A stretch of DNA of 64,000 nucleotides from an uncultured Gammaproteobacteria bacterium (GCA_963763115.1 CAVXNM010000026.1:7055-71054); one strand, 5' to 3'. Numbered from the stretch's first letter, positions 6,580 to 27,206 are shown. Notes: generated from the sequence alone by a model not told the origin. Made by a program: numbers and translations.

Positions 6580-6595
6580 TTCAGAAACAGAACTC

Positions 6596-10064: not shown

Positions 10065-10120
10065 TGGCGTGCTGCCTAACAAACACATGCAGTCGGACGC
10101 GGCGATATGCCTATTAAGAA

Positions 10121-11319: not shown

Positions 11320-11499
11320 AGCCCGTCAGATTTTCGATCCGAATAGGCCGACGGGACGTTCGGCTACTGTGATGGCTGCTGAACTTGCACACGGTCTACC
11401 ACCACCGTCCGATCAGCCCCCGGTGACCAGTCGCTGTCGCACATGGATATCAGCGCGGCGCTTTCGTATGCACGGCGGCAGGCTGATGACTCATGGCGA

Positions 11500-11661
11500 T
11501 CATTTGCCTTTTCCCTTCAGGTACAGGACGCGAGCTACAATGAAGCACCCGAGTACCAGCAGGCCATACGGGTAGGGAATGTAGCCCAGAGAAAACCCCG
11601 TGACGCTTGCGGCGAGCAGAAGGGACAGCGTAATCAGGAGAGGGTCTGTTGTCTTGTTCAT
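11500..11661 (-). CDS. hypothetical small membrane protein (53 aa)
   Basis: MNKTTDPLLITLSLLLAASVTGFSLGYIPYPYGLLVLGCFIVARVLYLKGKGK: two hydrophobic segments. No other support. Confidence 0.3.
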   Translation of the reverse strand: MNKTTDPLLITLSLLLAASVTGFSLGYIPYPYGLLVLGCFIVARVLYLKGKGK

Positions 11662-12346
11662 GACGCGATCGTCAGGCACGGTCTGTGCCGTGAGATCTCC
11701 CGCCTCCCTTGAGGTGATTGCCGGTGCACCTCCCCGGCAGTGCGATGCCAAGGGATTTGACTTTTACGCGGCCATGTGGGGTCACAGAGGCAGCCAGTCA
11801 CCTCAGCGAACAGTCGCAGAGTTGAGGGTTTGACCGTCACCGCCAGAAAAAAACTCTGGGCATACGTGGAACCAAAAGCCGGCAGACTGCATCATGCGCC
11901 GCCGGTATTATCCCAGACGTCGGAGAGCACCGCGCGCAACCGCATACTATCCCCCAACGCCTCCAGTTTGCGCCGTGCCACTGCATTGCGCCTGCTTTGC
12001 GTCGCTCGCGAGGAACGGGGGTACCAAGATTGTACTGCCTTAAATGTGTCGACCTGACTCTCCAGGATGAGTTCACCTCCTGAGAATCCTGCCTTGCCGA
12101 TCAGCCGGCGCGTAATGGGTGTATCGTGATGAAGACGCCACACAGTGATTGGATTTAACCGTGTTTACAGGCCTCATCCCCAGGCAACAGGAAGTGGAGC
12201 CTAAACGCACAAACTCAACGAGTAGTCAACCCGGTCGAACCAGATGTGGTCGATCCTTATTGCACTGTTCGTGGTTGTTACCCGGGCGGACGGAAACCCC
12301 GTAATCCCGTCCGCCCGCATTGTCCACAAAGTGTCTAATTATTCGG

Positions 12347-12469
12347 TTAGAGTGCGATCACCGCTGCCGCACTCATCAGCAACAGCAAGGGGGTTGTCAA
12401 AAACCCTAATACTATCTTTGTGATAAGGAGATCTTCCCGGTTCATCGAATGCGTTGCAACGTGTCTCAT
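12347..12469 (-). CDS. candidate 40-aa hydrophobic micro-ORF divergent from the MerR gene
   Basis: MRHVATHSMNREDLLITKIVLGFLTTPLLLLMSAAAVIAL with a GAGGA-like Shine-Dalgarno. Below the ORF-track length cutoff. Confidence 0.25.
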   Translation of the reverse strand: MRHVATHSMNREDLLITKIVLGFLTTPLLLLMSAAAVIAL

Positions 12470-12534
12470 GGCGAAGTCCTCAGTGTTGGTGGAGCACCAG
12501 GATATCTGGTGTTGTCTAGGACAATAGTGGTCAA

Positions 12535-12566
12535 TTGAGAAGTTGTCAAGGTTTTGTATAATACAA
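12535..12566 (+). promoter_or_regulatory. putative sigma70 promoter with an overlapping 13-bp palindrome upstream of the MerR gene
   Basis: TTGAGA, 16 nt, TATAAT. The perfect palindrome TTGTATAATACAA (12554-12566) spans the -10 element. Confidence 0.35.
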
Positions 12567-12636
12567 TTGTTAATTTCATCGTCTCCGCTATGAAATTATT
12601 CCCGACTGCCCTCGGCCATACTGACTGGAAACCGCC

Positions 12637-13611
12637 ATGAATGAACCAATCGAGAATAGTTCAATCCGTTACCGCATAGGTGCCGTGGCAAGACTCACCG
12701 GGATTTCTCCGGATGCGCTGCGTATCTGGGAGCGACGCTATGCGGCCGTTTCGCCGCAGCGGTCACCCCAGGGCGGGCGGCTCTACAGCGCCGGAGACAT
12801 GGAACGACTGCGCCTGATGAAGCAGTTGGTGGATGCCGGTGACGCCATCGGCGAGGTCGCGGGCCTCGACACCGAGACGTTAGAGGACCGGCTGAAAGCG
12901 GCGCGCCGCCTACCGCTCCGGAATGCACCCACGCAGAGGTCCCCCTGTCGGGTGGCTGTCGTGGGCGAAGCACTGGCCGACACGCTGCGAGTGGCTGGCG
13001 ATACCCCGGCCGGCATCACACTGGTGGCCAGTTACCGGGATGTCACCGACTACGAGGCCCGCGGCAGCGACGCCGAAGCCGACGTGCTGGTGATCGAACA
13101 GGCGACGCTGCACGGGGATATCGCCGCCCGCATGGTCGACTGGCTGATCCGTGCAAAGGCAGCGCATGCAGTGGTGGTGTACCGCTACGCCTCCCGGGAG
13201 ACACTCGCGCAACTGCCCGCTTCGACGTGTTCGGCCCTGTGCGCTCCAGTGGATCCGTGCACACTGCAGACGCATTGCCTGGCGATGTGGCACGCAGGTC
13301 AGCCAGCCCCCGAAGCGGCAAGCCCAGGGAGCGCAGGGTTCACCCTGCCCGCGCCATCGCGGCGCTACGACGATGAGGCGCTGGCGACACTGTCCTCGCT
13401 GTCATCTACCGTCAAGTGCGCATGTCCGCGCCACCTTGCTGAACTGATTACCAGCCTTTCCGCGTTCGAGCGCTACAGTATGGAGTGTGAAAGCCGCAGT
13501 CCCCGAGACGCTGCGCTGCATGCCTATTTGCATACCACCACGTCGCATGCGCGGCACATGATCGAAGAGGCGCTAGGTCATGTGATCGAGATGGAGAACA
13601 TTAAAATCTGA
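12637..13611 (+). CDS. MerR-family transcriptional regulator with a long C-terminal extension
   Basis: N-terminal MerR HTH YRIGAVARLTGISPDALRIWERRY. Central Rossmann/receiver-like segment. C-terminal Cys/His-containing segment KCACPRHLAELITSLSAFERYSMEC. Confidence 0.75.
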   Translation: MNEPIENSSIRYRIGAVARLTGISPDALRIWERRYAAVSPQRSPQGGRLYSAGDMERLRLMKQLVDAGDAIGEVAGLDTETLEDRLKAARRLPLRNAPTQRSPCRVAVVGEALADTLRVAGDTPAGITLVASYRDVTDYEARGSDAEADVLVIEQATLHGDIAARMVDWLIRAKAAHAVVVYRYASRETLAQLPASTCSALCAPVDPCTLQTHCLAMWHAGQPAPEAASPGSAGFTLPAPSRRYDDEALATLSSLSSTVKCACPRHLAELITSLSAFERYSMECESRSPRDAALHAYLHTTTSHARHMIEEALGHVIEMENIKI

Positions 13612-13724
13612 CGCCTGAATAGCCAGGAGAGAACGAAATGAGGTCTCGACCGGCCCGCCGGGCCAGGAGGTGAAGTCCGCAGGCTTCCGCAGAAACCCCC
13701 GCAGCTACGCGGGACTCTGCAATG

Positions 13725-13755
13725 AAAAAGGCCAACCGAGAGTGGTTGGCCTTTA
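13725..13755. terminator. bidirectional intrinsic terminator
   Basis: AAAAA-GGCCAACC-gagagt-GGTTGGCC-TTTAT: an 8-bp GC-rich stem flanked by an A-run and a T-run. Confidence 0.6.
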
Positions 13756-14201
13756 TGAATTGGTGGTGGGGCGGCAGCGGACACCAAACAGACCTATATC
13801 AACGCGTTAGGAGCAGTGCAAACTGCTGCGGAAAGTTGTGGAATCGAGTCGTAGCCGTTCGAATTCGTTGCAGATTTACCCTCCGACAGTGTCTGTGAAC
13901 AATTTACGGATCTAGCTCGGGTCTGATTTCGGAGGGTGGAATCGAACCGGCGTCCGCTTAAGCGTGCTGGCGGCCGAAGCGTGCCGGCATCCATGGCACT
14001 GTCTGGATGCCCAAAAGTCGTATTTGACCATCGGTTTGGATTTGGTAGGGGAAAGGCATCTGCCTGACGCTTAGTGGATCTGTTGTTACCAAGCTCTATA
14101 GGCAGCGCATCTGTCCGCCAGGCATACTTGACTTTATTCTTCTTGTTAACGCGTTCAAGTACGAGGTCGCCCGTCTGCACTACCTTAACAAGTTCGCCGG
14201 G

Positions 14202-14486
14202 TTGGGTGAGTTGAAAGAGGTTGTGTTCCGCGCGGGGTCCGTAGGGGAGATTGCGCAGGAACATGAACAGCGCATTGATGCGCAACTCCGGGATATCTAT
14301 ACGGATCTGGTCGATGAAGTGGGGCGCTCGGCCTCATTGATCAGACAGATTGCCGACAGCCTGGTGGAGGAGCAGATACTCGATGCGCACGATATCGAAA
14401 GGCTCGTGCAGTGTCTGACTTTCTGTCGCAGCATGAACTGGATGAACCGATCGTTATTAATCTACAAGCTATGCCGCATGCCGTGA
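14202..14486 (+). CDS. hypothetical acidic helical protein (TTG start); overlaps the next ORF by 76 nt and may be one frameshifted gene with it
   Basis: ...IAQEHEQRIDAQLRDIYTDLVDEVGRSASLIRQIADSLVEEQILDAHDIERLVQ: protein-like composition. No ATG start. Confidence 0.3.
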   Translation: MGELKEVVFRAGSVGEIAQEHEQRIDAQLRDIYTDLVDEVGRSASLIRQIADSLVEEQILDAHDIERLVQCLTFCRSMNWMNRSLLIYKLCRMP

Positions 14487-14635
14487 TGAATCCTCACGAA
14501 CTCTTTCATACAATGCACAGGGTAAATCGCCAGGTACTGCATGTCGACGAGCTTGCAAATGATGACCTGAAGGCCATAAGCAACAACAAATCGCCTGCCG
14601 ACCATGCGCAATACAATGACGAACTCGATGATTGA
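14411..14635 (+). CDS. hypothetical acidic small protein (GTG start); stop overlaps the start of the ART gene
   Basis: 74 aa. C-terminus ...HAQYNDELDD. The stop TGA overlaps the TTG start of the downstream ORF (TTGA). Confidence 0.35.
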   Translation: MSDFLSQHELDEPIVINLQAMPHAVMNPHELFHTMHRVNRQVLHVDELANDDLKAISNNKSPADHAQYNDELDD

Positions 14636-15312
14636 ACGCGCAGCCATTCCACGACATCATGCGTCGCAAACCGAAACATAAGCAACCTGCGCCAGGAGTA
14701 CCTGCATTGCGGCCGGCCAGGTTGGCGGCCTGTTACTACCACGGCACTGATGAGCAATATGCCTGGTCGATCATGACGCACGGCTTCACCCTGGCGAACG
14801 AGCGCTGGGGGCGAGGCTGGGGTAATGGCGTCTACCTGAGTGGTACCGATGACTTCGCTTCGACCTGGGGGCGGATCATTATCCGCTGTCAACTCCAGGC
14901 AGGCACCCGCTTGCTATGGCACGAGGACTATGATTACAAGGTCATCGATTCCCTGCGCAGGGAGTTCGGCAAAGACATCGTATCGCCGACGTTCTGGATG
15001 GTCATGCCGCATAACAAGCAGTTCACCCGCATTGAGGTAACCCAGCTCTGGCACTATCTCGTCGCCCGTTTCTACGAAAGCCCGCGCCGCTTTCGGGCCG
15101 GCAGATTCGAATGCCTGCAGAAAAACTATTCACGCATCTACGAGCAGTTAAGGCGGCATGGCTACGACGCTGTCGGATTCCGTGACACTGACTGGCCCGA
15201 ATTGCTGGTATTCAATCCCGCGCGAGTACAACCGCTATCCGCCCATCGCTGGAGCCAGATAACCCACCGCCTGGGCGCGCCGATTCCCGTATGGCGTTTG
15301 AAGTCGATGTAA
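14632..15312 (+). CDS. PARP-like (H-Y-E type) ADP-ribosyltransferase-fold protein
   Basis: YYHGTDEQYAWSIMTHGF (His strand), GNGVYLSGTDDFASTWG (Tyr strand), IIIRCQLQAG, and DAVGFRDTDWPELLVFNPARVQP (Glu strand). Start is TTG 14632 or ATG 14659. Confidence 0.6.
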   Translation: MNAQPFHDIMRRKPKHKQPAPGVPALRPARLAACYYHGTDEQYAWSIMTHGFTLANERWGRGWGNGVYLSGTDDFASTWGRIIIRCQLQAGTRLLWHEDYDYKVIDSLRREFGKDIVSPTFWMVMPHNKQFTRIEVTQLWHYLVARFYESPRRFRAGRFECLQKNYSRIYEQLRRHGYDAVGFRDTDWPELLVFNPARVQPLSAHRWSQITHRLGAPIPVWRLKSM

Positions 15313-15325
15313 AAGGGTGTTGTGT

Positions 15326-15386
15326 AAAAGGGTTCGGAGCACATTTACTGCTAATATCAGGGATAAATGTGCTCCGACACCCTTTT
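15326..15386. terminator. long bidirectional terminator hairpin between the convergent ART and P450 genes
   Basis: AAAAGGGT-TCGGAGCACATTTA-(16-nt loop)-TAAATGTGCTCCGA-c-ACCCTTTT: about 22 bp of pairing with an A-run and T-run on the flanks. Confidence 0.7.
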
Positions 15387-16627
15387 CACACGTGCAGGCG
15401 TACCGGCAGGCTCCGCAGTCCGCGCATCACCAGCCCGGGTGTCCATCGCAGCCGTTCGACCGGCTGGTCGAGGCGCAGCTCTGGAAACCGCCTTGACAGC
15501 TCGACGAGGGCAATCTCGCCCTCGGCCCGCGCCAGCGCGGCTCCCACGCAAAAGTGTATCCCGTAGCCAAATGCCAGGTGATTTGCTGATCTGCCGCGCG
15601 TGATGTCGAATATGTGCGCGTCTTCGAAGTAACGCGGATCGCGGTTGGCAGCCGCCAGCCCGACGAAGACCATGTCGCCCTCGTGGATACAATTGTCATC
15701 GAACGTGATATCCGCCGTTGCGTAGCGTGCCGTGGACACCTCGAGCGGACTCTCGAATCGCAGTATTTCCTCGACCGCCGCCGCCGCACGTCCTGCATCG
15801 GCACAGAGTGCCTGCCATTGCGCAGGGTTTCTGAGCAATGCCAGCAGCCCGTTGCCAATGAGATTTGCAGTCGTTTCATGTCCGGCCATGATCAGCAGGA
15901 ACGCCATGGAAACCAGCTCTTCTTCAGAGAGTTCCTTGCGACCGTGCGCGGCCACTAATGCACTGAACAGCGAATCGTCGGGGCTTGAGCGTTTCATGTC
16001 GGCGACCCCCAGCAGGTATTCGTGCAGTTCCCCGGCGATCAGCGGTACACGCTCCGCGGCGCCGAGGTCGGCAGATGCCAGTCGTGCCGACCAGTGCTGT
16101 ACACGTGGTACGTCCGCCGCGGTAATGCCCATCAGCTCGCAAATTACCATGAGGGGAAGCGGGAGGGCGAAGGTCTGCACGAGGTCCGTTGTGCCGCTGG
16201 AGGCGAAAGCATCGATCAGTTGCACGGTAGTCTCCCGGATTCGAGGGCGCATGCGGTTGATGCGGGTCGAGGTGAGTTCCCTTGCAATGATTGCGCGCAG
16301 ACGGGTGTGTTCCGGAGGGTCTATCGTGAGCAGGTGGTGAAACAGCGGGTGCACGGTTCCCTGTTGACTGCAGGCATCCGGATCCTGCCTGCTGGCATGG
16401 CTCTTCGCGCGGTCCTTGGACAGGCGCGGGTCATTCAGCAATGCACGTGCCGGGGAGCAATCTGTTACCAGCCAGGTTTGCACACCGGTCGGCAAGCGCA
16501 CCGGAATGATCGAGCGGCCCTGTTTGCGCAAACTGTCGTAGAGCGGGTAAGGGTTTGCCTTGAACGCCTGGTCCATGATCGGAAGATCGATGTGTTCCGG
16601 ACAATTTGTCAGGTCAGAGGGTTCCAT
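15386..16627 (-). CDS. cytochrome P450
   Basis: 413 aa. Heme-binding loop FGYGIHFCVGAALARAE, EILRFESP (ExxR) and the I-helix LLIMAGHETTANLI. Confidence 0.9.
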   Translation of the reverse strand: MEPSDLTNCPEHIDLPIMDQAFKANPYPLYDSLRKQGRSIIPVRLPTGVQTWLVTDCSPARALLNDPRLSKDRAKSHASRQDPDACSQQGTVHPLFHHLLTIDPPEHTRLRAIIARELTSTRINRMRPRIRETTVQLIDAFASSGTTDLVQTFALPLPLMVICELMGITAADVPRVQHWSARLASADLGAAERVPLIAGELHEYLLGVADMKRSSPDDSLFSALVAAHGRKELSEEELVSMAFLLIMAGHETTANLIGNGLLALLRNPAQWQALCADAGRAAAAVEEILRFESPLEVSTARYATADITFDDNCIHEGDMVFVGLAAANRDPRYFEDAHIFDITRGRSANHLAFGYGIHFCVGAALARAEGEIALVELSRRFPELRLDQPVERLRWTPGLVMRGLRSLPVRLHV

Positions 16628-16812
16628 GTAGAGTCAATCAGCAATATCAGTCAATCGGTTGTCAAGTAAACCCGGACAGGGCAGGACGGGATGATGAAAA
16701 CAGCATACAGCCAGTGTTGCGGGCATGCCAGCGATTGCCGGCTGCCCTTGACCCTCCGCTTTCACCTGTCGCGCGGCGCGGTCGATACCTTCCAGATTGC
16801 GGGTATCACTGC

Positions 16813-17883
16813 ATGAACCTTTCCCGCAGCGGACCGGAATTTCCCGAGTGCACGGGGCTATGGCAGACGCCGGAATGGTTCCCGATGAACCTCTTGCCCC
16901 GAGAAAACAAAATGGTACTCGTGCCCGTATCGGAACTGCTCTACCGGGAGGTCAATTTCCTGGACGACAGGGAATTACCGGTGGACGGTCTCATCGAGCT
17001 GCCACTGGACCGGGTAATCCGAATGTCGGCACGAATCCGCGCGCCACACACACCGGTACACTGCATCTATCACATTGCGTTCTGTGGATCGACGCTCATC
17101 GCGCGCTGCCTTGATCAGCTTACGGGAACGCTGGTTCTCAAGGAGCCGCTGTCCTTTCACGAGATGGCCTGCCAGAAGCGCCTTGCAGCTTCTTCTGCAC
17201 AGGAATGTGCGCTATGGCGCAGGTCATTCGACCTGCTCATGACGCTGCTGGGTCGTACTTTCCGTACCGACCAGGCCGTGATCGTCAAGCCGACGGATGC
17301 TTCAACCAACCTGATCGGAGACGTGCTGGCGCGTAACGAGGAGTCACGGGCCATTTTCCTTTATGTCGGACTCGAAGAGTTCCTCATCGCGATGCTGCCT
17401 GATGAAACCAGGATGGGGTTCGTGATAGACCGGCTTGCGGAGCTGGGTGTACATTTCCCCGGCAAGCCGCTGTTCAGCGAGCAGGGTTGGCGCAAGCTGA
17501 CGTCGCCGGAGCAGGCTGCATGTCTGTGGTTTCTGCACATGTCGCTGTATGCCAGCATCATGGCAATGAACCCCGAAGCCGGGTGTCGGGCCCTCGACCT
17601 CAACCGGTTTCTTCAGGAGCCTGAACATACCCTCGTCTCGTTGGCCAGGTTCTTTGAGATCCCCGTAACGTTGCAACAGGCCAGGCATGCCATCACTGCA
17701 AGCCTGGGTCTGCATTCCAAGGATCAGAAGCTTGCCTACTCGGCCCGACAACGAGCCAGCAGCCAACGCGAGATTGCGCGCAGATATCGCAGCGAGATCC
17801 GCCTGGGTCAGCGCTGGGCCGCACGCCGGCTCGAGCAGGAGGGCCTGCCGGAGACCCCGCCACTGCCACTGGGAGTCATTTGA
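16813..17883 (+). CDS. hypothetical protein, possibly sulfotransferase-like
   Basis: 356 aa from ATG 16813, divergent from the P450 across 185 bp. HIAFCGSTLIARCLDQLTG resembles the PAPS 5'-phosphosulfate loop (xxSGSTLL) of Stf0-type sulfotransferases. The functional call is weak. Confidence 0.5.
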   Translation: MNLSRSGPEFPECTGLWQTPEWFPMNLLPRENKMVLVPVSELLYREVNFLDDRELPVDGLIELPLDRVIRMSARIRAPHTPVHCIYHIAFCGSTLIARCLDQLTGTLVLKEPLSFHEMACQKRLAASSAQECALWRRSFDLLMTLLGRTFRTDQAVIVKPTDASTNLIGDVLARNEESRAIFLYVGLEEFLIAMLPDETRMGFVIDRLAELGVHFPGKPLFSEQGWRKLTSPEQAACLWFLHMSLYASIMAMNPEAGCRALDLNRFLQEPEHTLVSLARFFEIPVTLQQARHAITASLGLHSKDQKLAYSARQRASSQREIARRYRSEIRLGQRWAARRLEQEGLPETPPLPLGVI

Positions 17884-18256
17884 CAAGCATCTGGTTTCAC
17901 GCTAAATAACTGCAGAATTATCAGTATGTTGGCTAATTAATCGAGGCGGTGCGCTGTTTTCGTGTAGTCCTGACTCTGCCGGGTGGGCTACCGGGGCCGT
18001 ACGTCGGCATTGACTATGTCTGGAAGCATTCCGTTAACCGTACGCACCGTGCATCGATACGCGGTTGATCTCGTCCTGGCGGCTGTGATAAATAACTATT
18101 GCATGGCGTGATAATACGGCTAGCTTCTTATCGGGATACCGGATTATTACTACAAGGCAAGTATCGGGGGGCTCGTACACGTCCGGTAACATGCTTCCGC
18201 CATGTACGGCAGTGTTACGCAGGTTTGTTACACAGATCAAAGAGGAGATTTGAAAA

Positions 18257-18481
18257 ATGCAAACAGCACATGATCTGGTACGTTTAAAGGTTGATGCATT
18301 GCGTTCGGCGATGGCTGCAAGGGAAGTCAACCAGGGGCAGGCAATCAAGGCGCTGGCTGATATCGCCGCATGCGAATCACCTGTGGATCGTTCAATCAGT
18401 AATCCTGACATGCATCGCGGTGACGCGTTGCATATGTGCCCATGGCATACCTGTCAAGCAACTCGTCACATCAATTCCTGA
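18257..18481 (+). CDS. candidate lanthipeptide precursor peptide (LanA)
   Basis: 74 aa. GAGGAG Shine-Dalgarno 8-9 nt before the ATG. Lies directly upstream of the synthetase. The C-terminal part AACESPVDRSISNPDMHRGDALHMCPWHTCQATRHINS has 3 Cys and 6 Ser/Thr. Confidence 0.6.
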   Translation: MQTAHDLVRLKVDALRSAMAAREVNQGQAIKALADIAACESPVDRSISNPDMHRGDALHMCPWHTCQATRHINS

Positions 18482-18522
18482 TAGTTCCCATACCCGCGAA
18501 TTGTGTGTAACGGCGTTTTGAA

Positions 18523-18550
18523 CGCGGCAGAGGCTTACTCTGCCGCGTTT
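18523..18550 (+). promoter_or_regulatory. intercistronic attenuator/terminator hairpin between precursor and synthetase
   Basis: CGCGGCAGAG-gctta-CTCTGCCGCG: a perfect 10-bp stem with a 5-nt loop, followed by TTT. Confidence 0.6.
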
Positions 18551-18556
18551 ACATGT

Positions 18557-21115
18557 ATGTGTGCACGGCTTGCGGACGACTGGGAAATTACTGACTGGTC
18601 AGATGGCTCCCTGCAATGGCGTTTCTTCCGGTGCTGCGGCGAGGACTTGCCGGCGCAGGGCTGGAAAATCCACGTCACGGCCAGTGCTACCGAAGCTCCC
18701 GAACTGCTCACTGCACTCACCACACTGCTGGGCGAGCTGGTATTTTCATTCAAGATTCCGCGAAGGATTGAAGACATCGTCTTCCTGAATTCCGGGGATG
18801 CAGGGCTGCAGCAGCTCGGCAAGATCGTCACGATCTATCCCGGGAATGACGAACATGCGCGCGAGATCATCATGCGCATTGACCGGCTCTGGCCTTCAAG
18901 CCGGGGTCCGGAGGTGCAGTCTGATCTGCATGCCAGGCCCGGTTCAGCGGTGTCGCTCCGCTACGGTGTGTTCGGATCCGGGGCCACGACGGTCAGCAGC
19001 ACGGGTGTGCACGATTTTGCCTTGGTTTTTCCGGATGGATCACGCGCGCCGGACAAGCGCCTGCCAGATGGTGAGCAGCACAGGCAGGCACCGGCACCGC
19101 CGGTGGAATGCTGTCTGCCGAGTCCATTTCCGGTCCGACTGAACGAGACATTCCGGGCAGGCAACAGCAGCTACATCGCGCTCGCCCTGCTCGGCGACAG
19201 CCCGCGTATGCGCATCTTCCTTGGCGCGGATCTCGAGAGTTTGCAAACAGTGGTGCTGAAAATCGGGCGCCCGGGCGTGGCAGGTGACCAGGCGGGCGTG
19301 GATATCGGTGTGCTGATGAGGAAGGAATACCATATTCTGGCTGCTCTTGCCGGCCAGGATGGCCTGGTGCCCCGCGTGCTCGAATGGGTGGGCGGGGACT
19401 GGCCGATACTAGTCATGGAGGATTTTCGTGGCGAACTGTTGTCAGAGTCGCCCCGTTCCGTGCGTATCAAGTGCATGCCGATGCTTGCGGATGCCGTCAG
19501 TCGCGTGCATGCCGCAGGAATCGTGCACGGTGACATCAAGCTCGAAAACGCCGTGCGCAGGGGTTCGCAGGTGGGCCTTATTGATTTCGAGCTGGCGGAT
19601 CCGGAAGGCGCGGTCGCGCGCAAGGGCGGCACCCGGGGCCACATGGGGCCAGAGACGGATACCGGGGCGCATGCCGCACCATCGCGCGACGTGTTCGCGC
19701 TGGGTGGTTGCATGGTGCAGGCGCTACTCGACATTCCACCGGGCCTGTTACCGGCGGGTACGGGTCGCTACCGCGCGCTGTTCCACAATGAAGATTGCAC
19801 GGCTGCAGCGAGCCTGGTGGCGGCATTCACTCACCCTGATCCCGGGTCGCGTCCGGATGCCGCAATGGCCGCGACCATGCTCGCCGCGAGCGTCGACACG
19901 CTGGTAAATATCGCGCCGGCCCGTGGACAACCGGCCAGCTGCAGGGAACACAACTGGTGCCGACGCGCCGCCATGGACGCTGCGCAGTTGGCAGGTACCT
20001 ATGCCAGGTCCGGTCCGGATGGCATGCGCTGGCGCAATGCGCATTTCATGAAATCGTTTAATTGCGAGTCGATCAATATCGGCGCGGCGGGGATCATGCT
20101 CGGGCTGCAGACAATCGATTGTGCGCTGGGTCGGAACGATTTCGGCAGCCAGCTCGATCAGGGTGCACGCTGGTTGTCGGGCCGTCCCGCGGAGGCCAAC
20201 TCGGCCGGCCTCTTCACGGGCAATGCCGGTGTTGCCTTGGCGCTGGCGGTAGCAGGTTGCCGGCTAAAGAAGCAGGCCTACCTCGATGCTGCAAAACAAC
20301 GCTTTGCAGCGGCGGTGGCCGACCGGCGCGAGATCGACCTGTTCTCCGGCTGCGCCGGTGTTGTCTGGGCTGCCTGCCTTCTGAATGAAATCCTCCAGCA
20401 GCCCTGGCCCATGGAAATGGCCACGCCAGCGTACCGCCATTTGTACGCCCAGGCTGGTGCGATAGATGGCATACCGGTGTGGGGCGCCGGGGACAATCCG
20501 GAAGCGGCCTACCTGGGTTGCGCGCACGGTTCGGCGGGCGTTGCGATGGCGCTGGCGTGCTGGGGACGGCTGGCGGCCGACCCTGACTGTATCGATGTGG
20601 CCAGGAATGCCTTCAGACGGATCGCCGCCGATGGCCGCACGCAGGACGGCAAGGCCCTCAAGATCACTTTGCGCGAACATCGGCATCACGCAGTCGGGAA
20701 CTGGTGTCATGGCGTGGCCGGCTATCTCTGGTCGATACTCCAGGGCATCGGAGACGATCCCGCGCTGCGGGACGAAATCGACTGGGCGGCAGGATGTCTG
20801 ATGGATGTGATGGCCGTGGGCACGCCCACCTATTGTCACGGGCTGGCCGGTCAGCTGGAACTGTGGCGCATGCTGGGCAGCATTCCCCGTTACCGGTCAG
20901 TGGCGGACGCACGGGCCGGGAAGGTCGCGCGCGCATTGAGAATTGTGCATCATAAAGTCGATGGTCGATGTGCATGGATTGCTGATGATCCGGATATTAC
21001 CACGCCCGACTTGTGGGTCGGTTTTCTGGGGCCGGCGACGGCACTGGCAATGCATGCTGCGGGAATCCGTTCGGCACTACTCTCGGGCGAGTGGTTGTCC
21101 ACATGTGCGGACTAG
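18557..21115 (+). CDS. lanL: class IV lanthipeptide synthetase (LanL-type: lyase + Ser/Thr kinase + Zn-ligand-containing LanC-like cyclase)
   Basis: QGWKIHVTAS (class III/IV lyase-domain motif). Kinase HGDIKLENAV and IDFELA. Cyclase repeats GAAGIMLGL and GNAGVALAL, with CAHGSAGVA, NWCHGVAGYLW and YCHGLAGQLE. The ORF-track GTG 18503 lies upstream of the hairpin, so ATG 18557 is preferred. Confidence 0.85.
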   Translation: MCARLADDWEITDWSDGSLQWRFFRCCGEDLPAQGWKIHVTASATEAPELLTALTTLLGELVFSFKIPRRIEDIVFLNSGDAGLQQLGKIVTIYPGNDEHAREIIMRIDRLWPSSRGPEVQSDLHARPGSAVSLRYGVFGSGATTVSSTGVHDFALVFPDGSRAPDKRLPDGEQHRQAPAPPVECCLPSPFPVRLNETFRAGNSSYIALALLGDSPRMRIFLGADLESLQTVVLKIGRPGVAGDQAGVDIGVLMRKEYHILAALAGQDGLVPRVLEWVGGDWPILVMEDFRGELLSESPRSVRIKCMPMLADAVSRVHAAGIVHGDIKLENAVRRGSQVGLIDFELADPEGAVARKGGTRGHMGPETDTGAHAAPSRDVFALGGCMVQALLDIPPGLLPAGTGRYRALFHNEDCTAAASLVAAFTHPDPGSRPDAAMAATMLAASVDTLVNIAPARGQPASCREHNWCRRAAMDAAQLAGTYARSGPDGMRWRNAHFMKSFNCESINIGAAGIMLGLQTIDCALGRNDFGSQLDQGARWLSGRPAEANSAGLFTGNAGVALALAVAGCRLKKQAYLDAAKQRFAAAVADRREIDLFSGCAGVVWAACLLNEILQQPWPMEMATPAYRHLYAQAGAIDGIPVWGAGDNPEAAYLGCAHGSAGVAMALACWGRLAADPDCIDVARNAFRRIAADGRTQDGKALKITLREHRHHAVGNWCHGVAGYLWSILQGIGDDPALRDEIDWAAGCLMDVMAVGTPTYCHGLAGQLELWRMLGSIPRYRSVADARAGKVARALRIVHHKVDGRCAWIADDPDITTPDLWVGFLGPATALAMHAAGIRSALLSGEWLSTCAD

Positions 21116-21196
21116 GGTTACGGCTATCCATCTGCAACAATGACGGGTCGGGCAACGGGCAGTCAGCGCTGGCATAACGAGGCAACCAGCTGAAGG

Positions 21197-22099
21197 ATGC
21201 GAGACCATGCAGTGGTGGCCGGTGTGGAACAGTTGACACTCAAGTTTCGTGAGCTGGGCGTGGTTTGCGCGCGCGGCGCGTTGGATCGCAAGGCACAGGA
21301 GCTAGCCAGTCATGCCTATGGTTGGACGCTCGAGCATCCTGGCCCCGGCGCAAGGGATGTGCTGGCCGGGATGGCGGGCGCGTTCTTCCAGGATCATGCC
21401 AACCCGCAGGCCTTCCCGATCTACCGGCCCCTGCTGTGCGATACTGGACTTGGGGAGCTTGTCGCCGCGATCATGGGCAGCGCAAATCTCTGGTTCCTGT
21501 ACGAACAGATCTGGTTAAAGGAGGGTGGCGAGACCTTGCCAACACCATGGCACCAGGATCTGCCCTACATGCCCATGACAGGGGACCATTTGGCCACGAT
21601 ATGGATCAACCTGGATCCGGTGCCCAGCGAGCGTGCGCTGGAGTTCGTAGTCGGCTCACACTTGGGCCCGTTGTACAATCCCACGTCGTTCAATCCACGG
21701 GATCCACGCGACACGATGTTTTCCGACAACGCATGGCCACCCTTGCCGGATATCGAGGCCACACGTAATGCCTGGCCGATCCGGTCCTGGGATACCTGTC
21801 CTGCCGATGTGCTGGTCTTTCACCCGGCTATTCTGCACGGGGGCGCGCCGACGCGTGCCGGCACCAGGCGCAGATCGATTTCGTTGCGCGTATTTGGGGA
21901 CGAGGCATACTGTGCCGAGCGTCCGGAGGAAGGGCTTGCACGGATCGACCGGCTTAAATGTGACAGCAGGATGCGCGATCCAATCGAAGAGATGGCCCAC
22001 AGGGAGCCGGGCACGCTGTTTCGTCACCCGGGTTTTCCACAGCTTGTCCTGGGCAAGGCCGGCGCAACGGCCATGTCACAGCGGCAGCCCGGAGAGTGA
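21197..22099 (+). CDS. phytanoyl-CoA dioxygenase (PhyH) family Fe(II)/2-oxoglutarate oxygenase
   Basis: 300 aa. WHQDLPY (HxD), VLVFHPAILHGG (distal His) and RRSISLRVFG. Confidence 0.75.
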   Translation: MRDHAVVAGVEQLTLKFRELGVVCARGALDRKAQELASHAYGWTLEHPGPGARDVLAGMAGAFFQDHANPQAFPIYRPLLCDTGLGELVAAIMGSANLWFLYEQIWLKEGGETLPTPWHQDLPYMPMTGDHLATIWINLDPVPSERALEFVVGSHLGPLYNPTSFNPRDPRDTMFSDNAWPPLPDIEATRNAWPIRSWDTCPADVLVFHPAILHGGAPTRAGTRRRSISLRVFGDEAYCAERPEEGLARIDRLKCDSRMRDPIEEMAHREPGTLFRHPGFPQLVLGKAGATAMSQRQPGE

Positions 22100-22117
22100 G
22101 GTCGCGTCAGTCAATCC

Positions 22118-23008
22118 ATGGCATTGCGTACAATCAGACTGGCACCTGTGCTGGGTGCGGAGATTTCCGGTATCGATCTTGCTGAAGAACTCGACAGCGG
22201 GACTGTCGTGGCCATCAAAGCGGCCCTCGCTGAGCATGGTGTGCTGGTGTTTCCGGGTCAGTGCCTCGATGACGTCGCCCATATCCGGTTTGCGCGCCAT
22301 TTCGGGACGCTTGGTGTATTTCGCAACGGCAACAGTCGGGATGGCTTGTTGCCAGAGATCTTTCGCCTGTCGAACACCGATTCGGCCGGCAGCTTGCTGC
22401 CGGCGGGTAGTGAACGGCTTGAGCTGCTCAGGCTCAATATGTCCTGGCACATTGACAGCAGTTATCGCGCAATACCGACCCAGGGGGCTATCCTGCACGG
22501 GATTGAGGTTTGCGTTGACGGCGGCGACACGGTATTCGCAAACATGGTGGCAGCCTACCAGGCCATGCCGGCTGCAATGAAGTTGCGTATCGACAATCTC
22601 GTATCAATTCACAATTTCGAGTTTCAGGTCAGGAACCGGGGGTTACCGCCAATGAGCGAGGAAGAACTCGACCGGTTACCCCCTGTGGTACACCCGCTGG
22701 TGCGCGAACATGCGGACCGCCGGTGCTCGCTTTACCTCAGCCCGCCCTACATGGAGACGATTCTCGGGTGGAGCCGGGAAAGCAGTAAGGCGCTCGTCCT
22801 GGAACTCACGGAGTGGGCCACGCAGGACAGGTTCATATACCGGCACCGCTGGCGACCACACGATCTGCTCATGTGGGATAACGGCTGGACGATGCACAGG
22901 GTGACTCCATTCAATCTCACGCAGCACAAGCGCCTGTTGCATGGTGTCCTGATCATGGGCGACGAGGCAGTGCTACCGGTAGTCGCTGGAAATGACGGGC
23001 AGGCATGA
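22118..23008 (+). CDS. TauD/TfdA family Fe(II)/2-oxoglutarate dioxygenase
   Basis: 296 aa. WHIDSSY (HxD), GGDTVFANMVAAYQAMP, HPLVREH and DLLMWDNGWTMHRV. Confidence 0.8.
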   Translation: MALRTIRLAPVLGAEISGIDLAEELDSGTVVAIKAALAEHGVLVFPGQCLDDVAHIRFARHFGTLGVFRNGNSRDGLLPEIFRLSNTDSAGSLLPAGSERLELLRLNMSWHIDSSYRAIPTQGAILHGIEVCVDGGDTVFANMVAAYQAMPAAMKLRIDNLVSIHNFEFQVRNRGLPPMSEEELDRLPPVVHPLVREHADRRCSLYLSPPYMETILGWSRESSKALVLELTEWATQDRFIYRHRWRPHDLLMWDNGWTMHRVTPFNLTQHKRLLHGVLIMGDEAVLPVVAGNDGQA

Positions 23009-24744
23009 GGCGCCGTCCGTGGACACGCCACAAGGCAGCTCCGAAATTGGCGCGAAACGCGACACTCTACAGCTACCGCGCAACGGCAGAAAGCTTTGGG
23101 CAGCTGGCCGGGCTGTACCTTGGCAGTGTCAATGTGGAAGATGACTTTGTCGGACCCGAACTGTCAGAGATCCTGACGTTGATAGCGCGGCAGGAAGAAC
23201 TGCGGTTCTTTGTCGATGGCACGCGCAATCTCGGTCACCAAGCCTCCACAATATCCCTGATGAAACGCCTGATTGACCGTGTCGGGTACGCGGGAAAAAT
23301 CCGGGTGGTTTACGCTGACTACGACAACAAGTTGCTCGGCAGGACAGGAGAGAAACTGGCGTTGATGCTGCCCGGCCTGGATCCGTCACGCATGGACGAT
23401 TGCGTATTGGATTACGGATCCTGCAAGCATATCAGCTTTGTCGGTTATCAAGACAGGAGCGTCCTGCAACAGGAGATCGACTTTGCCTTTACCGGCGGTG
23501 CGGATGACATGTCGGTTAATTACGCCAGGGAGCTGAAGGTCAGGTACTTCACGCGTATCCAGCCCTACCTGTGGGATGATGAGGCATCGCGCAAGAAGGA
23601 CCCCTATTACGAAAGTTCGAGCGTGGAGCGGCCGGATGGATACTGTTTTTATCCGGCAGATGCCTGCTCCGGCTTCCGCCTGCTTACCTACAAATACCCG
23701 GCGGGCCGCCATGACGTCGTGCACGAGGATGTCTGGAAGTGGTATGGCGAGACCGAGCAATATGATAACGGGTTGAAGACCAGGACAAGAAATATCAGGA
23801 AGCTATGGGAGTTGAGCGCGTCATCCGGTCACACACTGCTCTGGCCTGTCTACGGACTGCAGCATTTCCACGCGCATGTTTCACACGTGGTCCTGAATAT
23901 CGTGTTCAGCGCGATGCTGGCGCAGCCCGCGCTCGGCAAGAACATCGTTGTCCTGTCGCTCAGTCCCCCTGAACGGATCACCGGCTGGGAGAGTTTCGTC
24001 GGGCCACTGGCGGATGATCTCGGCCGGAGCGATGCCGGATTCCCGTCATTCCGTGAAGCGCTTGCGAAATGTCCCCGGGATGGGACGTTCCACGAGCGCA
24101 TGCCGACCGTTCTGAGTGTGGATAGCATGATTGGGGCAATTCCCAGGGGCGTGCACAGGTGGATCGGGTCGGGCGGGCACTTGAGAGTGCTATCCGGTCA
24201 TGATGAAAGCGGGAGCACCAGCCTGGATATCACGGATCAGCTTGATGCTGCGGTGAGGCGTGCAAGGTCGCATGATATCGTATTCGTTTCCATGGGTACG
24301 GTGCCCATGGATGTGTTCAATGCCGTGTACGCCGCTCCGGGTATACCGGGCATCATAGAGGGCCAGACCATGTCGAGCCTGGCAATCAGTCACGGCAAGC
24401 CGTTCCTGCAAATACCCCGGCCGGACCATGTCATCCGGAACAGCTACCCGTCCTCTCTCCCGGGGGCAGATTTTTCACGCATCTCCGCGGAGATGAACGA
24501 CATCGCAACGCAGCTCGGAACGACGAGCCTGGCGGACTGCCTCGATGCCCGCGGTGCTGCGCCTGCTTCCGGCTGTTTCGCAGGCACTGAAAGGGTATCC
24601 CGGTTTATCCTGGATGCGGCAGATGGTAACCGGGCAATCAGTGCTTACTTCGGATCGGTGGCGGAATACTGTCAAAAGGATATTCACGACAAGCTCATGA
24701 TCGGTCTGCTGGCGTTGCGGGAAGTCATGCGGGCGTCGGTGTGA
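23005..24744 (+). CDS. uncharacterised 579-aa protein, translationally coupled to the TauD-like gene
   Basis: ATGA start/stop overlap with the upstream gene. No motif I can name with certainty. The C-terminal IVFVSMGTVP...GIPGIIEGQTMSSLAISHGKPFLQIP is faintly reminiscent of GT-B glycosyltransferase C-domains. Confidence 0.6.
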   Translation: MRRRPWTRHKAAPKLARNATLYSYRATAESFGQLAGLYLGSVNVEDDFVGPELSEILTLIARQEELRFFVDGTRNLGHQASTISLMKRLIDRVGYAGKIRVVYADYDNKLLGRTGEKLALMLPGLDPSRMDDCVLDYGSCKHISFVGYQDRSVLQQEIDFAFTGGADDMSVNYARELKVRYFTRIQPYLWDDEASRKKDPYYESSSVERPDGYCFYPADACSGFRLLTYKYPAGRHDVVHEDVWKWYGETEQYDNGLKTRTRNIRKLWELSASSGHTLLWPVYGLQHFHAHVSHVVLNIVFSAMLAQPALGKNIVVLSLSPPERITGWESFVGPLADDLGRSDAGFPSFREALAKCPRDGTFHERMPTVLSVDSMIGAIPRGVHRWIGSGGHLRVLSGHDESGSTSLDITDQLDAAVRRARSHDIVFVSMGTVPMDVFNAVYAAPGIPGIIEGQTMSSLAISHGKPFLQIPRPDHVIRNSYPSSLPGADFSRISAEMNDIATQLGTTSLADCLDARGAAPASGCFAGTERVSRFILDAADGNRAISAYFGSVAEYCQKDIHDKLMIGLLALREVMRASV

Positions 24745-24841
24745 TCACGCTACGTGCTGTGGATTTCAGGTGAAATTGCTGATTTGCCATACACACGGTC
24801 GTGGTCTGATTGTCCTCAACTGCCTAAAGCCAGTATGAATC

Positions 24842-25069
24842 ATGCGCGAGTTCGATGCGCTGTGCCTGCCGCCGGTGAAGACCTACACGCCTACGCAGAT
24901 CAAGCGTCTGCGCACACGCTATAAGGCCAGCCAGGCCGTGTTTGCGGCCTATCTGAACACCAGCCCCTCGACTGTGCAGAAGTGGGAGCAGTGTCAGAAG
25001 AAACGAAATGGGCCTTCCCTGAGGTTGTTGAAACTGGTGGATGCGCACGGGCTGGAAGCGCTTGCCTGA
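24842..25069 (+). CDS. XRE-family HTH protein, COG2944/YiaG-type antitoxin-like; no partner toxin gene
   Basis: 75 aa. TPTQIKRLRTRYKASQAVFAAYLNTSPSTVQKWEQ...PSLRLLKLV matches the pattern of these antitoxin-type regulators. Confidence 0.6.
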   Translation: MREFDALCLPPVKTYTPTQIKRLRTRYKASQAVFAAYLNTSPSTVQKWEQCQKKRNGPSLRLLKLVDAHGLEALA

Positions 25070-25220
25070 GCAGTTGGAAGAAGGCGTTAATCCGCAAGTA
25101 ATCGCTTCGGGACTTTTACGGGATACGGATGTGCACGGTTATGCACTGTTGTGCAGTCGAGGCAACGGATGCCCCATTTAATCGCATTTAAAAACAACAA
25201 GATACAAGCCAACAATGCCA

Positions 25221-25265
25221 CTCATAATGCTGGGGTCGGTGGTTCAAGTCCACCCGTAGCCACCA
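25221..25265 (+). repeat. tRNA-Met 3'-half module, copy 3 (downstream part only weakly conserved)
   Basis: CTCATAATGCTGGGGTCGGTGGTTCAAGTCCACCCGTAGCCACCA, identical to the other copies from the anticodon loop to CCA. Confidence 0.85.
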
Positions 25266-26286
25266 TTAAAATAAATGCTTACAGAATTTCCCGCTCTTTG
25301 ATTTTTCTCCTGTAGTGCAAAAGTAGTGCGCAGTGCGTGAAATGGGTGCTTTCATTCGCCTGCTTTAAGTCTTTCCTACAGCACCCACCAGCGGTGTCCT
25401 ACTGCCGTGCCAGATGCGGCCGGTTAGGCTATGCCGTGCCGTAGTAATGCGTAGGTTGAGTTGGTTAGGTATTGCGGTCCTATAGCACAAATCGGCAGCT
25501 GCGGCCTTCGTGCCGCCGTTTTATTTTACAGATATAAATGCAACTACCACTGGGGCGAGTCTGGCATGGCGGGTGATGGGTGTCTGTCAGGCGGGTCTGA
25601 TAGTGCTACCAATGAAAACCTCAGGCACATGGCCGTAACCAGGTTGTCTTCTGCAAGCAATCTTTGCGGAAATACTATTCAAACGTCGTTCCGACTGGTA
25701 ACGGCGGTCAAAGAGTACTAATTGACCGTTAGACTCCTTCAAAGGGACATGTGCAGGCGTACCGCTCCTGCGATCAGTGATCTGTCGGCTGTCGTGTCCC
25801 ATGAAGTACAGAAACATTACATGCCCCCATTCGTTAGCCATTGTGCCACGAGCATTACGATAAGCCATTAACCACACGCGGTGAATTGTCCTGATGTACA
25901 ACCGTTGCTGATTCGGCAATAAATGACACACCAAGGTGGGCGGGGTCTGGTGTTGGGCGTCTGTCAGACAAGTCTGATTTCGATATCAGAATGGCTAAAG
26001 GAAAAGAATCGACCATTTCTGCCTTCGCATCCCGCGCCTGGATGCCTACGACGTTAGCCGTCTTGTTGGTTTGTATCACCCAACAACAACGCCAGTTGTG
26101 TTGGACCTCGCCCATCATTAAGCAGATATAACCCGACTGCGATACTCGGAGTAGCTAAGCGTAGAAAAGAAAGGCGCCGGAAATTCTGATAGTTAAGTAA
26201 CATGCCACGTTATTGGCACGGCGGTTGCTGTATGTGCAGCACGGTCCGCAAGGGCCAAAGGTCCAATTCATTTCAGGAGACGAACC

Positions 26287-26475
26287 ATGTGTAAGATTCC
26301 AGACAGGCTCTATGAGCTGCTGCCATACCTGTATGCCATTGCTGGTGTAGTGACGATTAATTATTTTGAAACATCCCTTGGATACGCTTCGGGAATTCTC
26401 CTTATTTTTACCGCTGGCATAATTTGGTTGATGAGAAGTGACTACCGCCAAGGTAGTGTTAACAAGAAAAACTAG
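26287..26475 (+). CDS. hypothetical small two-TM membrane protein
   Basis: 62 aa. AGGAGA Shine-Dalgarno. Followed by a terminator-like hairpin + T-run at about 26505-26545. Confidence 0.45.
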   Translation: MCKIPDRLYELLPYLYAIAGVVTINYFETSLGYASGILLIFTAGIIWLMRSDYRQGSVNKKN

Positions 26476-26590
26476 TACAACAGTCAGAACACCTTCACTA
26501 ACATTTTCCGGCGGCCTTCATTTCGCCGTTTCATTTTTGGGTAACTGCATAATCCACCCACGCCGCTGCTCCAGCATATCGGGCGGTGGA

Positions 26591-27206
26591 TGTCTGTCAG
26601 ACAGTTCTGAATAACCGTGTGCAATCCAAATGCAACATGGCTGTCATTCTTTCTTTACCTTTTTCAGGGGCGACGTCAATCTGGTGTCCTCGGTCATTGT
26701 TGCTGCAGAAGAGGATCAAGAACAATGGGGCCCATTGTCTGCGCGCTGTTACTGCTTGTGTCTACCGTGATTCGGCCACGGTTCTCCCTGCAGCTCGAGA
26801 TTGTGGCACTGCGACATCAACTTGCTGTGTATCAGAGAACAGCCACACGCCCGCATATTAGCTCCGGAGACCGTATTCTCTGGTCGTGGCTATCGCACCG
26901 TTGGTCGGGGTGGCGGGATGCTCTTGTGTTTGTCCAGACGGGGACCGTGATTACCTGGCAACGTAAACGTTTTCGCGATCATTGGGCCGCATTGAGCAAG
27001 CAGGGCAGAACCGGAGACCACCGGTCGCGAATGAAATCAGGGCATTGACCCGCAGGATGTCGGAAGTCAACCTTGGCTGGGGTTCGCCATGGATTCTCGG
27101 GGAGTTACGAAAACTCGGCATTGATGTCGCGAAATCAACCGTGGAGAAGTACCGGGTGCGGACGAGGAAACCACCGTCTCCGAATTACGAACGGTTGGCA
27201 GCATGA
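26591..27206 (+). pseudogene. IS481-like (rve/integrase-core family) transposase, N-terminal fragment with frameshift; probable left end TGTCTGTCAGACAG
   Basis: LQLEIVALRHQLAVYQR...DRILWSWLSHRWSGWRDALVFVQTGTVITWQRKRF, then in another frame EIRALTRRMSEVNLGWGSPWILGELRKLGIDVAKSTVEKY. The catalytic core is absent. Confidence 0.65.

Follow-up and report, generated by a model that had tools for sequence, protein, structure and literature searches.

We analyzed a stretch of 64,000 nucleotides from an uncultured Gammaproteobacteria bacterium (GCA_963763115.1, CAVXNM010000026.1:7055-71054), hereafter referred to as the window, in which a preliminary description made from the sequence alone had pointed out a lanthipeptide gene cluster of class IV (LanL type). 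Seven intact cluster genes are located within window positions 15386-24744. A cytochrome P450 gene on the minus strand diverges from the remaining genes, all on the plus strand, which encode, in this order, a 356-aa protein with a predicted sulfotransferase fold, a 74-aa precursor peptide, a tri-domain lanthionine synthetase, two Fe(II)/2-oxoglutarate oxygenases (of the PhyH and the TauD/TfdA families) and a 579-aa protein of an orphan family with a GT-B-like model. All the open reading frames (ORFs) reported in the preliminary description are present at the positions given for them. They are also intact, but the count of eight given then has to be amended to seven cluster genes, besides which there is one conserved flanking ORF, shared with the closest relatives only. 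Translations and Pfam matches confirm the upstream diverging P450, the PhyH and TauD oxygenases and the 579-aa ORF joined by an ATGA overlap. It is very probable that these genes form a functional cluster for a ribosomally made, post-translationally modified peptide. As far as can be judged from the encoded proteins, the cluster is a divergent, uncharacterized Gram-negative branch of class IV-type lanthipeptide biosynthesis, the chemistry of which is inferred.

Precursor peptide, synthetase and a hairpin within the synthetase gene

The precursor gene (18257-18481, plus strand) was assigned from its translation and from the homologous small ORFs of other loci. As previously described, it encodes 74 aa and has a strong Shine-Dalgarno sequence: a GAGGAG read at 18242-18247 (plus strand) lies 9 nt upstream of the ATG. 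The gene itself is located 21 nt upstream of the synthetase start. A homologous small ORF is found directly upstream of the synthetase gene in 22 other loci, and all the loci with enough upstream sequence carry an ORF of 58-82 aa ending just before the synthetase. The peptide contains an N-terminal leader motif, D-x-[VI]-R-x-[KR]-[VI]-D-x-[LM]-R, and a C-terminal core, ...ALHMCPWHTCQATRHINS, with two invariant Thr and two invariant Cys residues in the last 14 positions. In an alignment of 18 precursor sequences, C61, P62, T65, C66 and T69 are invariant, and conservation reaches 90% or more at R9, H59, W63 and R70. The central part varies, and H64 and H71 are replaced in some members of the family. 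The codons of the conserved core, H59-x-C61-P62-W63-x-T65-C66-x-x-T69-R70, span nucleotides 18431-18466 (plus strand). When 1.84 billion representative proteins were scanned with HMMER using the window peptide, 42 hits were obtained, 39 of which are small proteins with a C-terminal H-x-C-P-[WY]-x-T-C-x-x-T-[RKL], the most frequent ending being HMCPWHTCQATRHG. The core of the Gimesia precursor is identical to proteobacterial cores. No Pfam or NCBIfam model matches the precursor.

The synthetase gene (18503-21115, plus strand) most likely starts at GTG 18503 and not at ATG 18557, because an in-frame AAEAYSAAF is present in all homologues, several of which lack a later Met. The N-termini of the homologues thus give a protein of 870 aa, and the length of about 852 aa that had been proposed for it is probably too short. 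Three Pfam domains exceed their gathering scores, RamC_N (residues 36-188), Pkinase (320-413) and LANC_like (527-789), the latter two being those anticipated in the preliminary description, and the motifs quoted there (QGWKIHVTAS, HGDIKLEN, IDFE, CAHGSAG, NWCHGVAG and YCHGLAG) are all found in the translation.

The window protein was aligned with 19 relatives, some of which NCBI names LanL or LanKC. In this alignment, H675, C735-H736 and C778-H779 share columns with the named LanL proteins P0079 and P0082, whereas the LanKC proteins P0084 and P0085 have other residues at the zinc-ligand columns. Within 35 members of the clade, the zinc ligands C735, C778 and H779 and the active-site H675 are invariant, as are K55, H57, K84, K107, Y112 and R153 of the lyase and E275, D344 and D361 of the kinase; K253 and N349 of the kinase are present in at least 90% of the sequences. 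Presumably, these lyase and kinase residues correspond to those mutated in VenL. The class IV-type assignment made at the outset is therefore upheld by the tri-domain order and by Cys/Cys/His ligands that occupy the same alignment columns as in named LanL proteins and that LanKC lacks.

Identity of the synthetase to actinobacterial LanL or LanKC proteins is of 24-30%, and to named LanL proteins of 24-28%. The NCBIfam LanL model (NF038150) scores 339.6 bits with a cut-off of 650, and the LanKC model (NF038151) 229.7 bits with a cut-off of 575; both values are below threshold, LanL being 110 bits higher, and the cut-offs are operational thresholds that show divergence rather than a mechanistic criterion. 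As the score lies under the 650-bit LanL cut-off, the protein is assigned to a divergent clade and not to the orthodox LanL enzymes. Among solved full-length chains, 8car (E = 1e-23), which we believe to be a class IV enzyme, is the nearest; for the lyase and kinase parts, matches to solved LanKC structures are also obtained. Homologues are publicly annotated either as 'LanC family protein' or as '(class III lanthionine synthetase) LanKC N-terminal domain-containing protein'. From the aligned residues, the defining mechanistic features of class IV appear to be present in this divergent clade.

The synthetase gene also contains a conserved RNA hairpin (18519-18551, plus strand), which is supported by its fold energy and by covariation in 19 loci. 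A 14-bp stem (18519-18532/18538-18551) encloses a 5-nt loop on the Tyr-12 codon, with an energy of -26 kcal/mol; the surrounding 101 nt fold with -38.1 kcal/mol (z = -3.7). A hairpin had already been noticed here, as a 10-bp element preceding the synthetase gene. Its existence stands, its stem is of 14 bp and, as the synthetase starts at GTG 18503, it lies inside the ORF (codons 6-16) and not in front of it. Covariation was analyzed in a gap-free, codon-registered alignment of 45 nt from the 19 loci. Standard pairs occupy 82% of the stem cells, versus 32-47% in slid controls, both sides are changed in 12 of the 14 stem pairs, and the observed values were reached in none of 500 shuffles. The peptide encoded by the stem varies (AAEAYSAA, AVEAYSTA, AAQGYCAA, LLHDYEEA). 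As pairing is kept while the encoded peptide changes, selection acts on the RNA, and an RNA structure constrains the protein sequence. An intergenic intrinsic terminator was ruled out, since the hairpin is inside coding sequence and the sequence 3' of it is not consistently U-rich, GCTC being found in many loci instead of a U-run. Most likely, the hairpin would set the precursor-to-synthetase ratio, through partial termination or attenuation, stabilization of the transcript 3' end or limited translation initiation, and it offers a handle on this ratio.

Candidate tailoring genes, their recurrence and their selection

Metal or haem motifs are intact in all three oxygenases. The PhyH-family protein (21197-22099, plus strand, 300 aa) matches Pfam PhyH with E = 3.8e-13 and 50.6 bits (cut-off 22); the facial triad WHQD...FHPAILHG is read from its translation, and its nearest solved structure is MysH (E = 1.9e-14). 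The TauD/TfdA-family protein (22118-23008, plus strand, 296 aa) matches Pfam TauD with E = 1.3e-57 and 196.2 bits (cut-off 27), its translation contains the facial triad WHID...MHRV, and the TfdA-like 5j92 is the nearest solved structure (E = 4.8e-41). The P450 (15386-16627, minus strand, 413 aa) matches Pfam p450 with E = 4.7e-29 and carries AGHETT I-helix and FGYGIHFCVG haem-Cys motifs.

The start of the 356-aa protein (16813-17883, plus strand) was set at ATG 16813, as in its homologues. The window protein has no Pfam or NCBIfam match, and weak Sulfotransfer_3 matches are obtained for 5 of 16 homologues. An AlphaFold2 model was built from the family alignment (predicted local distance difference test score, pLDDT, of 90.1) and compared with the PDB by Foldseek. 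The top 50 matches all belong to the sulfotransferase family and include CurM ST (5.8e-6), TPST1/2, Teg14 and Stf1, with template modelling (TM) scores of 0.39-0.60; we take these enzymes to be dependent on 3'-phosphoadenosine 5'-phosphosulfate. The family profile also matches the Stf1 sequence (2zq5), weakly (E = 4.9e-4). An xCGSTLxxR loop, E111 and K159 are conserved, and we assume that the CGSTL-x-x-R loop resembles the 5'-phosphosulfate-binding loop. The earlier designation of this gene as sulfotransferase-like is hence supported by the fold.

The 579-aa protein (23005-24744, plus strand) is encoded by a gene that overlaps the TauD gene by ATGA. Neither this protein nor 40 homologues match any Pfam or NCBIfam model, and a profile search of the PDB gave noise only. 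Its AlphaFold2 model, also from the family alignment (pLDDT 89.7), consists of two Rossmann-like halves. Its best Foldseek matches are GT-B glycosyltransferases, namely TreT (E = 6.7e-4, prob 0.99), glycogen synthase, OGT and UGTs, at low TM values of 0.3-0.4. We found 55 homologues, all annotated as 'hypothetical'. Two members of the family are fusions, P0143 (858 aa) to TauD and P0161 (854 aa) to P450; loci with such fusions or with other added genes are L002 (13475-15775), L149 (10560-12863) and L005 (15113-18718). The ATGA coupling to TauD and the fusions to TauD and P450 together argue for a joint action of the 579-aa protein and the oxygenases.

About 78 homologues of the synthetase, with 37-89% identity, were retrieved from 5.8 billion clustered proteins. 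Their sources include metagenome-assembled genomes (MAGs) of Gammaproteobacteria and Steroidobacteraceae, Pseudomonas putida, Azohydromonas australica, Sphingopyxis, Bryobacteraceae (Acidobacteria), Nitrospira and Gimesia. For the study of gene neighborhoods, ten homologues were fetched directly and 62 metagenome loci were added from a clade-specific pattern scan, gene content being determined by tblastn. Exact look-ups of the 852-aa database version of the synthetase (P0099) and of the Azohydromonas protein gave no contig. A scan of genome contigs with the alignment that includes actinobacterial LanL and LanKC yielded mainly actinobacterial loci; among the matches listed, only L006 and L019 belong to the clade. 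The co-occurrence pattern refers to loci with a synthetase at least about 45% identical to that of the window. The PhyH gene lies directly 3' of the synthetase gene in nearly all the clade loci. TauD recurs in L001-L004, L086, L087, L092, L093, L096, L102, L120, L133, L145 and L151, and P450 genes adjoin the synthetase in L001-L004, L006, L019, L086, L097, L101, L102, L133, L149 and L151; TauD and P450 are thus each found in a dozen or more loci, the 579-aa family in the clusters of 13 loci and the 356-aa protein in four lineages (the window group, L002, L003/L004 and L094). Gene order and flanks vary between loci. Co-occurrence spans Gammaproteobacteria MAGs, Pseudomonas putida, Sphingopyxis, Acidobacteria, Gimesia and many metagenome contigs, so that the gene set pointed out in the window recurs across phyla, with PhyH nearly universal. 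In the complete genome of Gimesia chilikensis (CP036342.1), the cluster comprises precursor, synthetase, PhyH, a DMFA2_C protein, a 553-aa unannotated protein and P450, and that of Sphingopyxis sp. (CP051527.1, L151) comprises P450, precursor, synthetase, PhyH, TauD and a Sulfotransfer_2 gene. This recurrence supports the view that the tailoring genes belong to the cluster. In the four sulfotransferase-bearing lineages, the precursor tails contain Ser (TRHINS, TKISPDAS, TRISPDATST and TRHSPN), most other precursors ending in TRHG; the correlation is suggestive, in a small sample.

The Sulfotransfer_2 gene of Sphingopyxis (L151, 11310-11963, minus strand) is unrelated to the 356-aa protein of the window; sulfation may have been recruited there independently. 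A 766-aa DMFA2_C protein, a 682-aa unknown protein and a BT1-family transporter, none of which the window contains, occur in other loci of the clade. A sister group of metagenome contigs (L103-L116, L118, L121 and L130) encodes zinc-type synthetases with 35-41% identity and has no PhyH, TauD, P450 or GT-B-like gene (e.g., L111, 942-1259; L118, 7709-7852). Its precursors are very different and rich in Cys, Ser and Thr (...CVCTSCCKTCWTSACCLT; ...CLCTGCCCTSCCLTCWSTS), and the group appears to be uncharacterized. The only actinobacterial member of the clade, from Microbispora sp. H13382 (L150, 6712-9610; 40% identity), has a different precursor (...SVTKRPCTYRRCPD) and an acyltransferase in place of PhyH; this locus hints at the point at which actinobacterial systems and the Gram-negative branch meet.

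A blastn comparison with L001 and L086 defined a conserved block of about 10.9 kb (14175-25072), to which a nucleotide identity of 82-90% is confined; the flanking genes differ from contig to contig around the block in the window, L001 and L086. The ratio of nonsynonymous to synonymous substitution rates (dN/dS) was calculated pairwise against these two loci. It is of 0.14-0.24 for PhyH, 0.19-0.22 for P450, 0.20-0.24 for the synthetase, 0.23-0.26 for TauD, 0.33-0.40 for the 579-aa protein, 0.37-0.55 for the sulfotransferase-like 356-aa protein and 0.43-0.58 for the precursor. All cluster genes are under purifying, somewhat relaxed selection (dN/dS 0.14-0.58), as the preliminary description had suggested from their intactness. 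Greedy ORF cover is of 0.96 in the cluster versus 0.70-0.77 in the flanks (1-14174 and 25073-64000), and median ORF size is of 413 aa versus about 150-166 aa.

Proposed pathway and alternative readings

In the pathway that we propose, the synthetase would bind the 74-aa precursor through the helical N-terminal leader motif. The kinase domain would then phosphorylate the invariant T65 and T69, and possibly the tail serines, the OspF-like lyase domain would eliminate phosphate to give dehydrobutyrines (Dhb), and the zinc-dependent LanC-like domain would add the invariant C61 and C66. As T65 directly precedes C66 and T69 lies C-terminal to C61 and C66 alike, at least one ring would have its Cys N-terminal to the dehydro residue, and canonical rings, with Ser/Thr first and Cys second, are impossible for both cysteines. 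The simplest pattern would be two small, non-overlapping methyllanthionines, C61-T65 and C66-T69. The PhyH-type oxygenase may hydroxylate one conserved core residue, and the TauD-type oxygenase and the P450 may add further oxidations. The GT-B-like 579-aa protein would probably act on a hydroxyl introduced by an oxygenase, to which it would transfer a group, and the sulfotransferase-fold protein would probably sulfate a hydroxyl, perhaps that of the tail serine found only in sulfotransferase-bearing loci. Leader removal and export would be carried out by unlinked functions.

The cluster shares with the actinobacterial LanL systems (venezuelin VenL, streptocollin, globisporin SgbL) the three-domain order, the zinc triad, the lyase and kinase residues and a single precursor gene located directly upstream, with no dedicated protease or transporter. 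Unlike them, it has Gram-negative hosts, a different precursor family, cysteines that precede the threonines, and linked oxygenase, sulfotransferase-like and GT-B-like genes. Thioamitide (thioviridamide-type) clusters also combine kinase/lyase-type dehydration with a PhyH-family oxygenase, but the window cluster lacks their YcaO/TfuA, LanD-type decarboxylase and methyltransferase genes. The PhyH-family oxygenase of thioamitides beta-hydroxylates a histidine, which gives a clue to what PhyH might do on the His-rich core. In class II, cinnamycin and duramycin are hydroxylated by the Fe/2-oxoglutarate enzyme CinX and have rings with Cys N-terminal to the dehydro residue; the synthetase class (LanM), precursor and hosts are different. 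LanKC systems, including the LanKC-Hbt subgroup of noursin, have the same lyase-kinase-cyclase layout with an N-terminal RamC_N; they differ in that LanKC lacks the zinc ligands, the precursor core of the window has no S-x-x-S-x-x-x-C labionin motif and its leader is not of the LELQEL type quoted for class III (PMC10206099).

Class IV is the least explored lanthipeptide class, placed by reviews only in Gram-positive phyla and without secondary modifications. LanL enzymes were found mainly in Actinobacteria and Firmicutes, with no class IV secondary modification reported (Walker et al., 2020; PMC7268733), and a 2025 review knows class IV clusters only from these two phyla (PMC12328550). Metagenome mining has counted 'class IV lanthipeptide' clusters in environmental MAGs, without characterization (PMC13642348). 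In the full text of open-access papers and bioRxiv preprints, subscription journals lying outside this coverage, the core string CPWHTC occurs in no paper, lanthipeptides in combination with PhyH gave no papers, and no description of a cluster of this kind was found for class IV in connection with proteobacteria, Gram-negative hosts, hydroxylation or P450. Lanthipeptides and phytanoyl-CoA dioxygenase are mentioned together in two papers, one of them PMC8120280. The cluster had been presented as an undescribed family. This is consistent with the searchable literature, but the family is not unique to the window, being widespread and unnamed in public genomes. New are the precursor family, the tailoring set and the Gram-negative branch; the system as a whole is of a known kind and does not constitute a new category. 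The branch comprises at least 39 precursor representatives and about 78 synthetases, with a predicted non-canonical ring arrangement and up to five tailoring enzymes, two of which belong to families devoid of any annotation. Sequenced genomes carrying the cluster are those of Gimesia chilikensis (CP036342.1) and of a strain labelled Pseudomonas putida (L005).

Several observations weigh against a decorated class IV-type lanthipeptide as the product. The synthetase scores far under the LanL cut-off, and its presumed activity is extrapolated from relatives of about 25-30% identity. The predicted ring polarity, with Cys N-terminal to Dhb, is not known from the characterized class IV products. The 579-aa protein resembles GT-B enzymes only through weak structural matches (TM 0.3-0.4), with zero sequence signal. 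No protease, exporter or immunity gene is found in the conserved block. The preliminary description had already noted that LanT and LanP are missing; this stands for the whole block, but it is not a peculiarity, since class III/IV clusters normally lack both. For the precursor and the sulfotransferase-like gene, dN/dS values of 0.4-0.6 indicate a fairly relaxed constraint. Finally, the core hardly varies between phyla, an unusual trait in antimicrobial lanthipeptides and a hint of another role, such as a conserved target or a non-antibiotic function.

The last point leads to the possibility that the same enzymes make another product, the His/Cys-rich core (H59, C61, H64, C66, H71) giving rise to a metal-binding or cofactor-like peptide in which His-to-Dhb crosslinks, as in noursin, might be formed instead of or besides the two methyllanthionines. 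Proteobacteria, Planctomycetes and Acidobacteria have nearly the same core, and a near-invariant core resembles cofactor or metallophore precursors more than antibiotics; the threonines, moreover, are wrongly placed relative to the cysteines for canonical rings. In noursin, a LanKC-type cyclase links His to Dhb, the crosslink needed to give a copper-binding peptide (PMC10206099). The noursin enzymes, however, form an actinobacterial class III subgroup (PMC10206099), whereas the thiol-activating zinc ligands are strictly conserved here; some precursors of the family have other residues in place of H64 and H71, and the conserved block contains no metal transporter or sensor. We consider such a product unlikely. 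It is possible, albeit doubtful, that the cluster makes a conserved, phylum-spanning, small bicyclic His-rich peptide, metal-binding or cofactor-like, and not a variable antibiotic; its crosslinks could possibly be thioethers of reversed polarity or of the His-Dhb type, and it could be decorated with hydroxyl, glycosyl or sulfate groups. If true, this would explain both the invariance of the 12-residue core from Proteobacteria to Planctomycetes and the presence of an intact cluster in an otherwise decaying genome.

Other alternatives concern the extent, the state and the class of the system. It is very improbable that some or all of the tailoring genes are chance neighbors or serve another pathway, the system then being restricted to precursor and synthetase, perhaps with PhyH. 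It is true that each of the P450, TauD, 356-aa and 579-aa genes is absent in part of the clade, that the tailoring proteins have no peptide-binding domain recognizable by Pfam or NCBIfam, and that the block lies in a rearranged region rich in insertion sequences (IS). Nevertheless, the same families are found beside the synthetase in different phyla, with differing orders and flanks, and the 579-aa family occurs inside these clusters in the 13 loci examined and is also known as fusions to TauD or P450. Translational coupling of the TauD and 579-aa genes and purifying selection on all genes amid a decaying neighborhood point in the same direction. Decay of the surroundings could also mean that the cluster, in a genome under reduction, is silent or itself a remnant in decay and gives no product in this organism: the genes around it are fragmented, its dN/dS values, of 0.2-0.6, are on the high side for bacteria, and neither an exporter nor a protease is linked. 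Taking into account that the seven ORFs are intact over 9.4 kb in three independent contigs differing by 10-15%, that dN/dS is clearly below 1 for all seven genes, and that catalytic motifs, hairpin and Shine-Dalgarno sequence are retained, we regard this as highly unlikely. A class III (LanKC) system producing labionin or lanthionine without zinc would agree with the annotation of several homologues as LanKC N-terminal proteins and with the 229.7-bit match to the LanKC model. This is extremely improbable, as the Cys/Cys/His ligands are invariant in the clade and absent from LanKC in the same alignment, the LanL model scores 110 bits higher, and the core contains no labionin motif.

Surroundings of the conserved block

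Within the conserved block, a conserved hypothetical ORF (14773-15312, plus strand) lies just outside and convergent to the P450 gene. It encodes about 179 aa from its ATG, the longest ORF starting at 14632, and is found in L001 and L086 only, with 79-83% amino acid identity and dN/dS of 0.23-0.36. It matches no Pfam family, it was not encountered in the more distantly related clusters, and its membership in the pathway is uncertain. An inverted repeat (15321-15390; 27-nt arms, 16-nt loop, 85% complementary), detected in a repeat search, sits between the convergent stop codons of this ORF and of the P450 gene and is probably a bidirectional terminator. The same kind of search in the window revealed no repeats bracketing the conserved block, and a megablast of the cluster against a plasmid collection gave no match. 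A promoter and terminator scan yielded a number of sites no higher than in shuffled sequence.

The flanks of the window contain an IS30-like transposase gene (8501-9475), a transposase fragment (30255-30938) and a MerR gene, and look like a genome in decay or undergoing IS expansion. A resistance-nodulation-division (RND) permease gene (58740-61813, minus strand) is 93% identical to a 1029-aa protein of a Gammaproteobacteria MAG, and shows a frameshift near 60053-60134 and an in-frame TAG replacing a Gln codon near 59850. The RND adaptor gene located upstream (61810-62991, minus strand), joined to it by ATGA, looks intact. As one of the lesions is a nonsense substitution, decay is real and not an indel artefact; the view that the flanking pseudogenes result from the assembly was rejected on this ground and because the cluster is intact in three independent contigs. 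The pseudogene-rich neighborhood of the preliminary description is borne out by the contrast in ORF size and by the RND pseudogene, and the Gram-negative context by the identity of the RND permease to the MAG protein and by the presence of homologous clusters in Gram-negative phyla.

No tRNA genes were detected in the window. An Rfam scan of the window gave one sub-threshold match, outside the cluster, to the antisense RNA HPnc0260 (25228-25372, minus strand; 43.6 bits versus a gathering score of 59, E = 0.031), probably by chance. The gene-poor stretch downstream of the cluster carries, at 25569-26610, three copies of a 32-nt direct repeat with 78-100% identity, spaced 377 and 633 nt.

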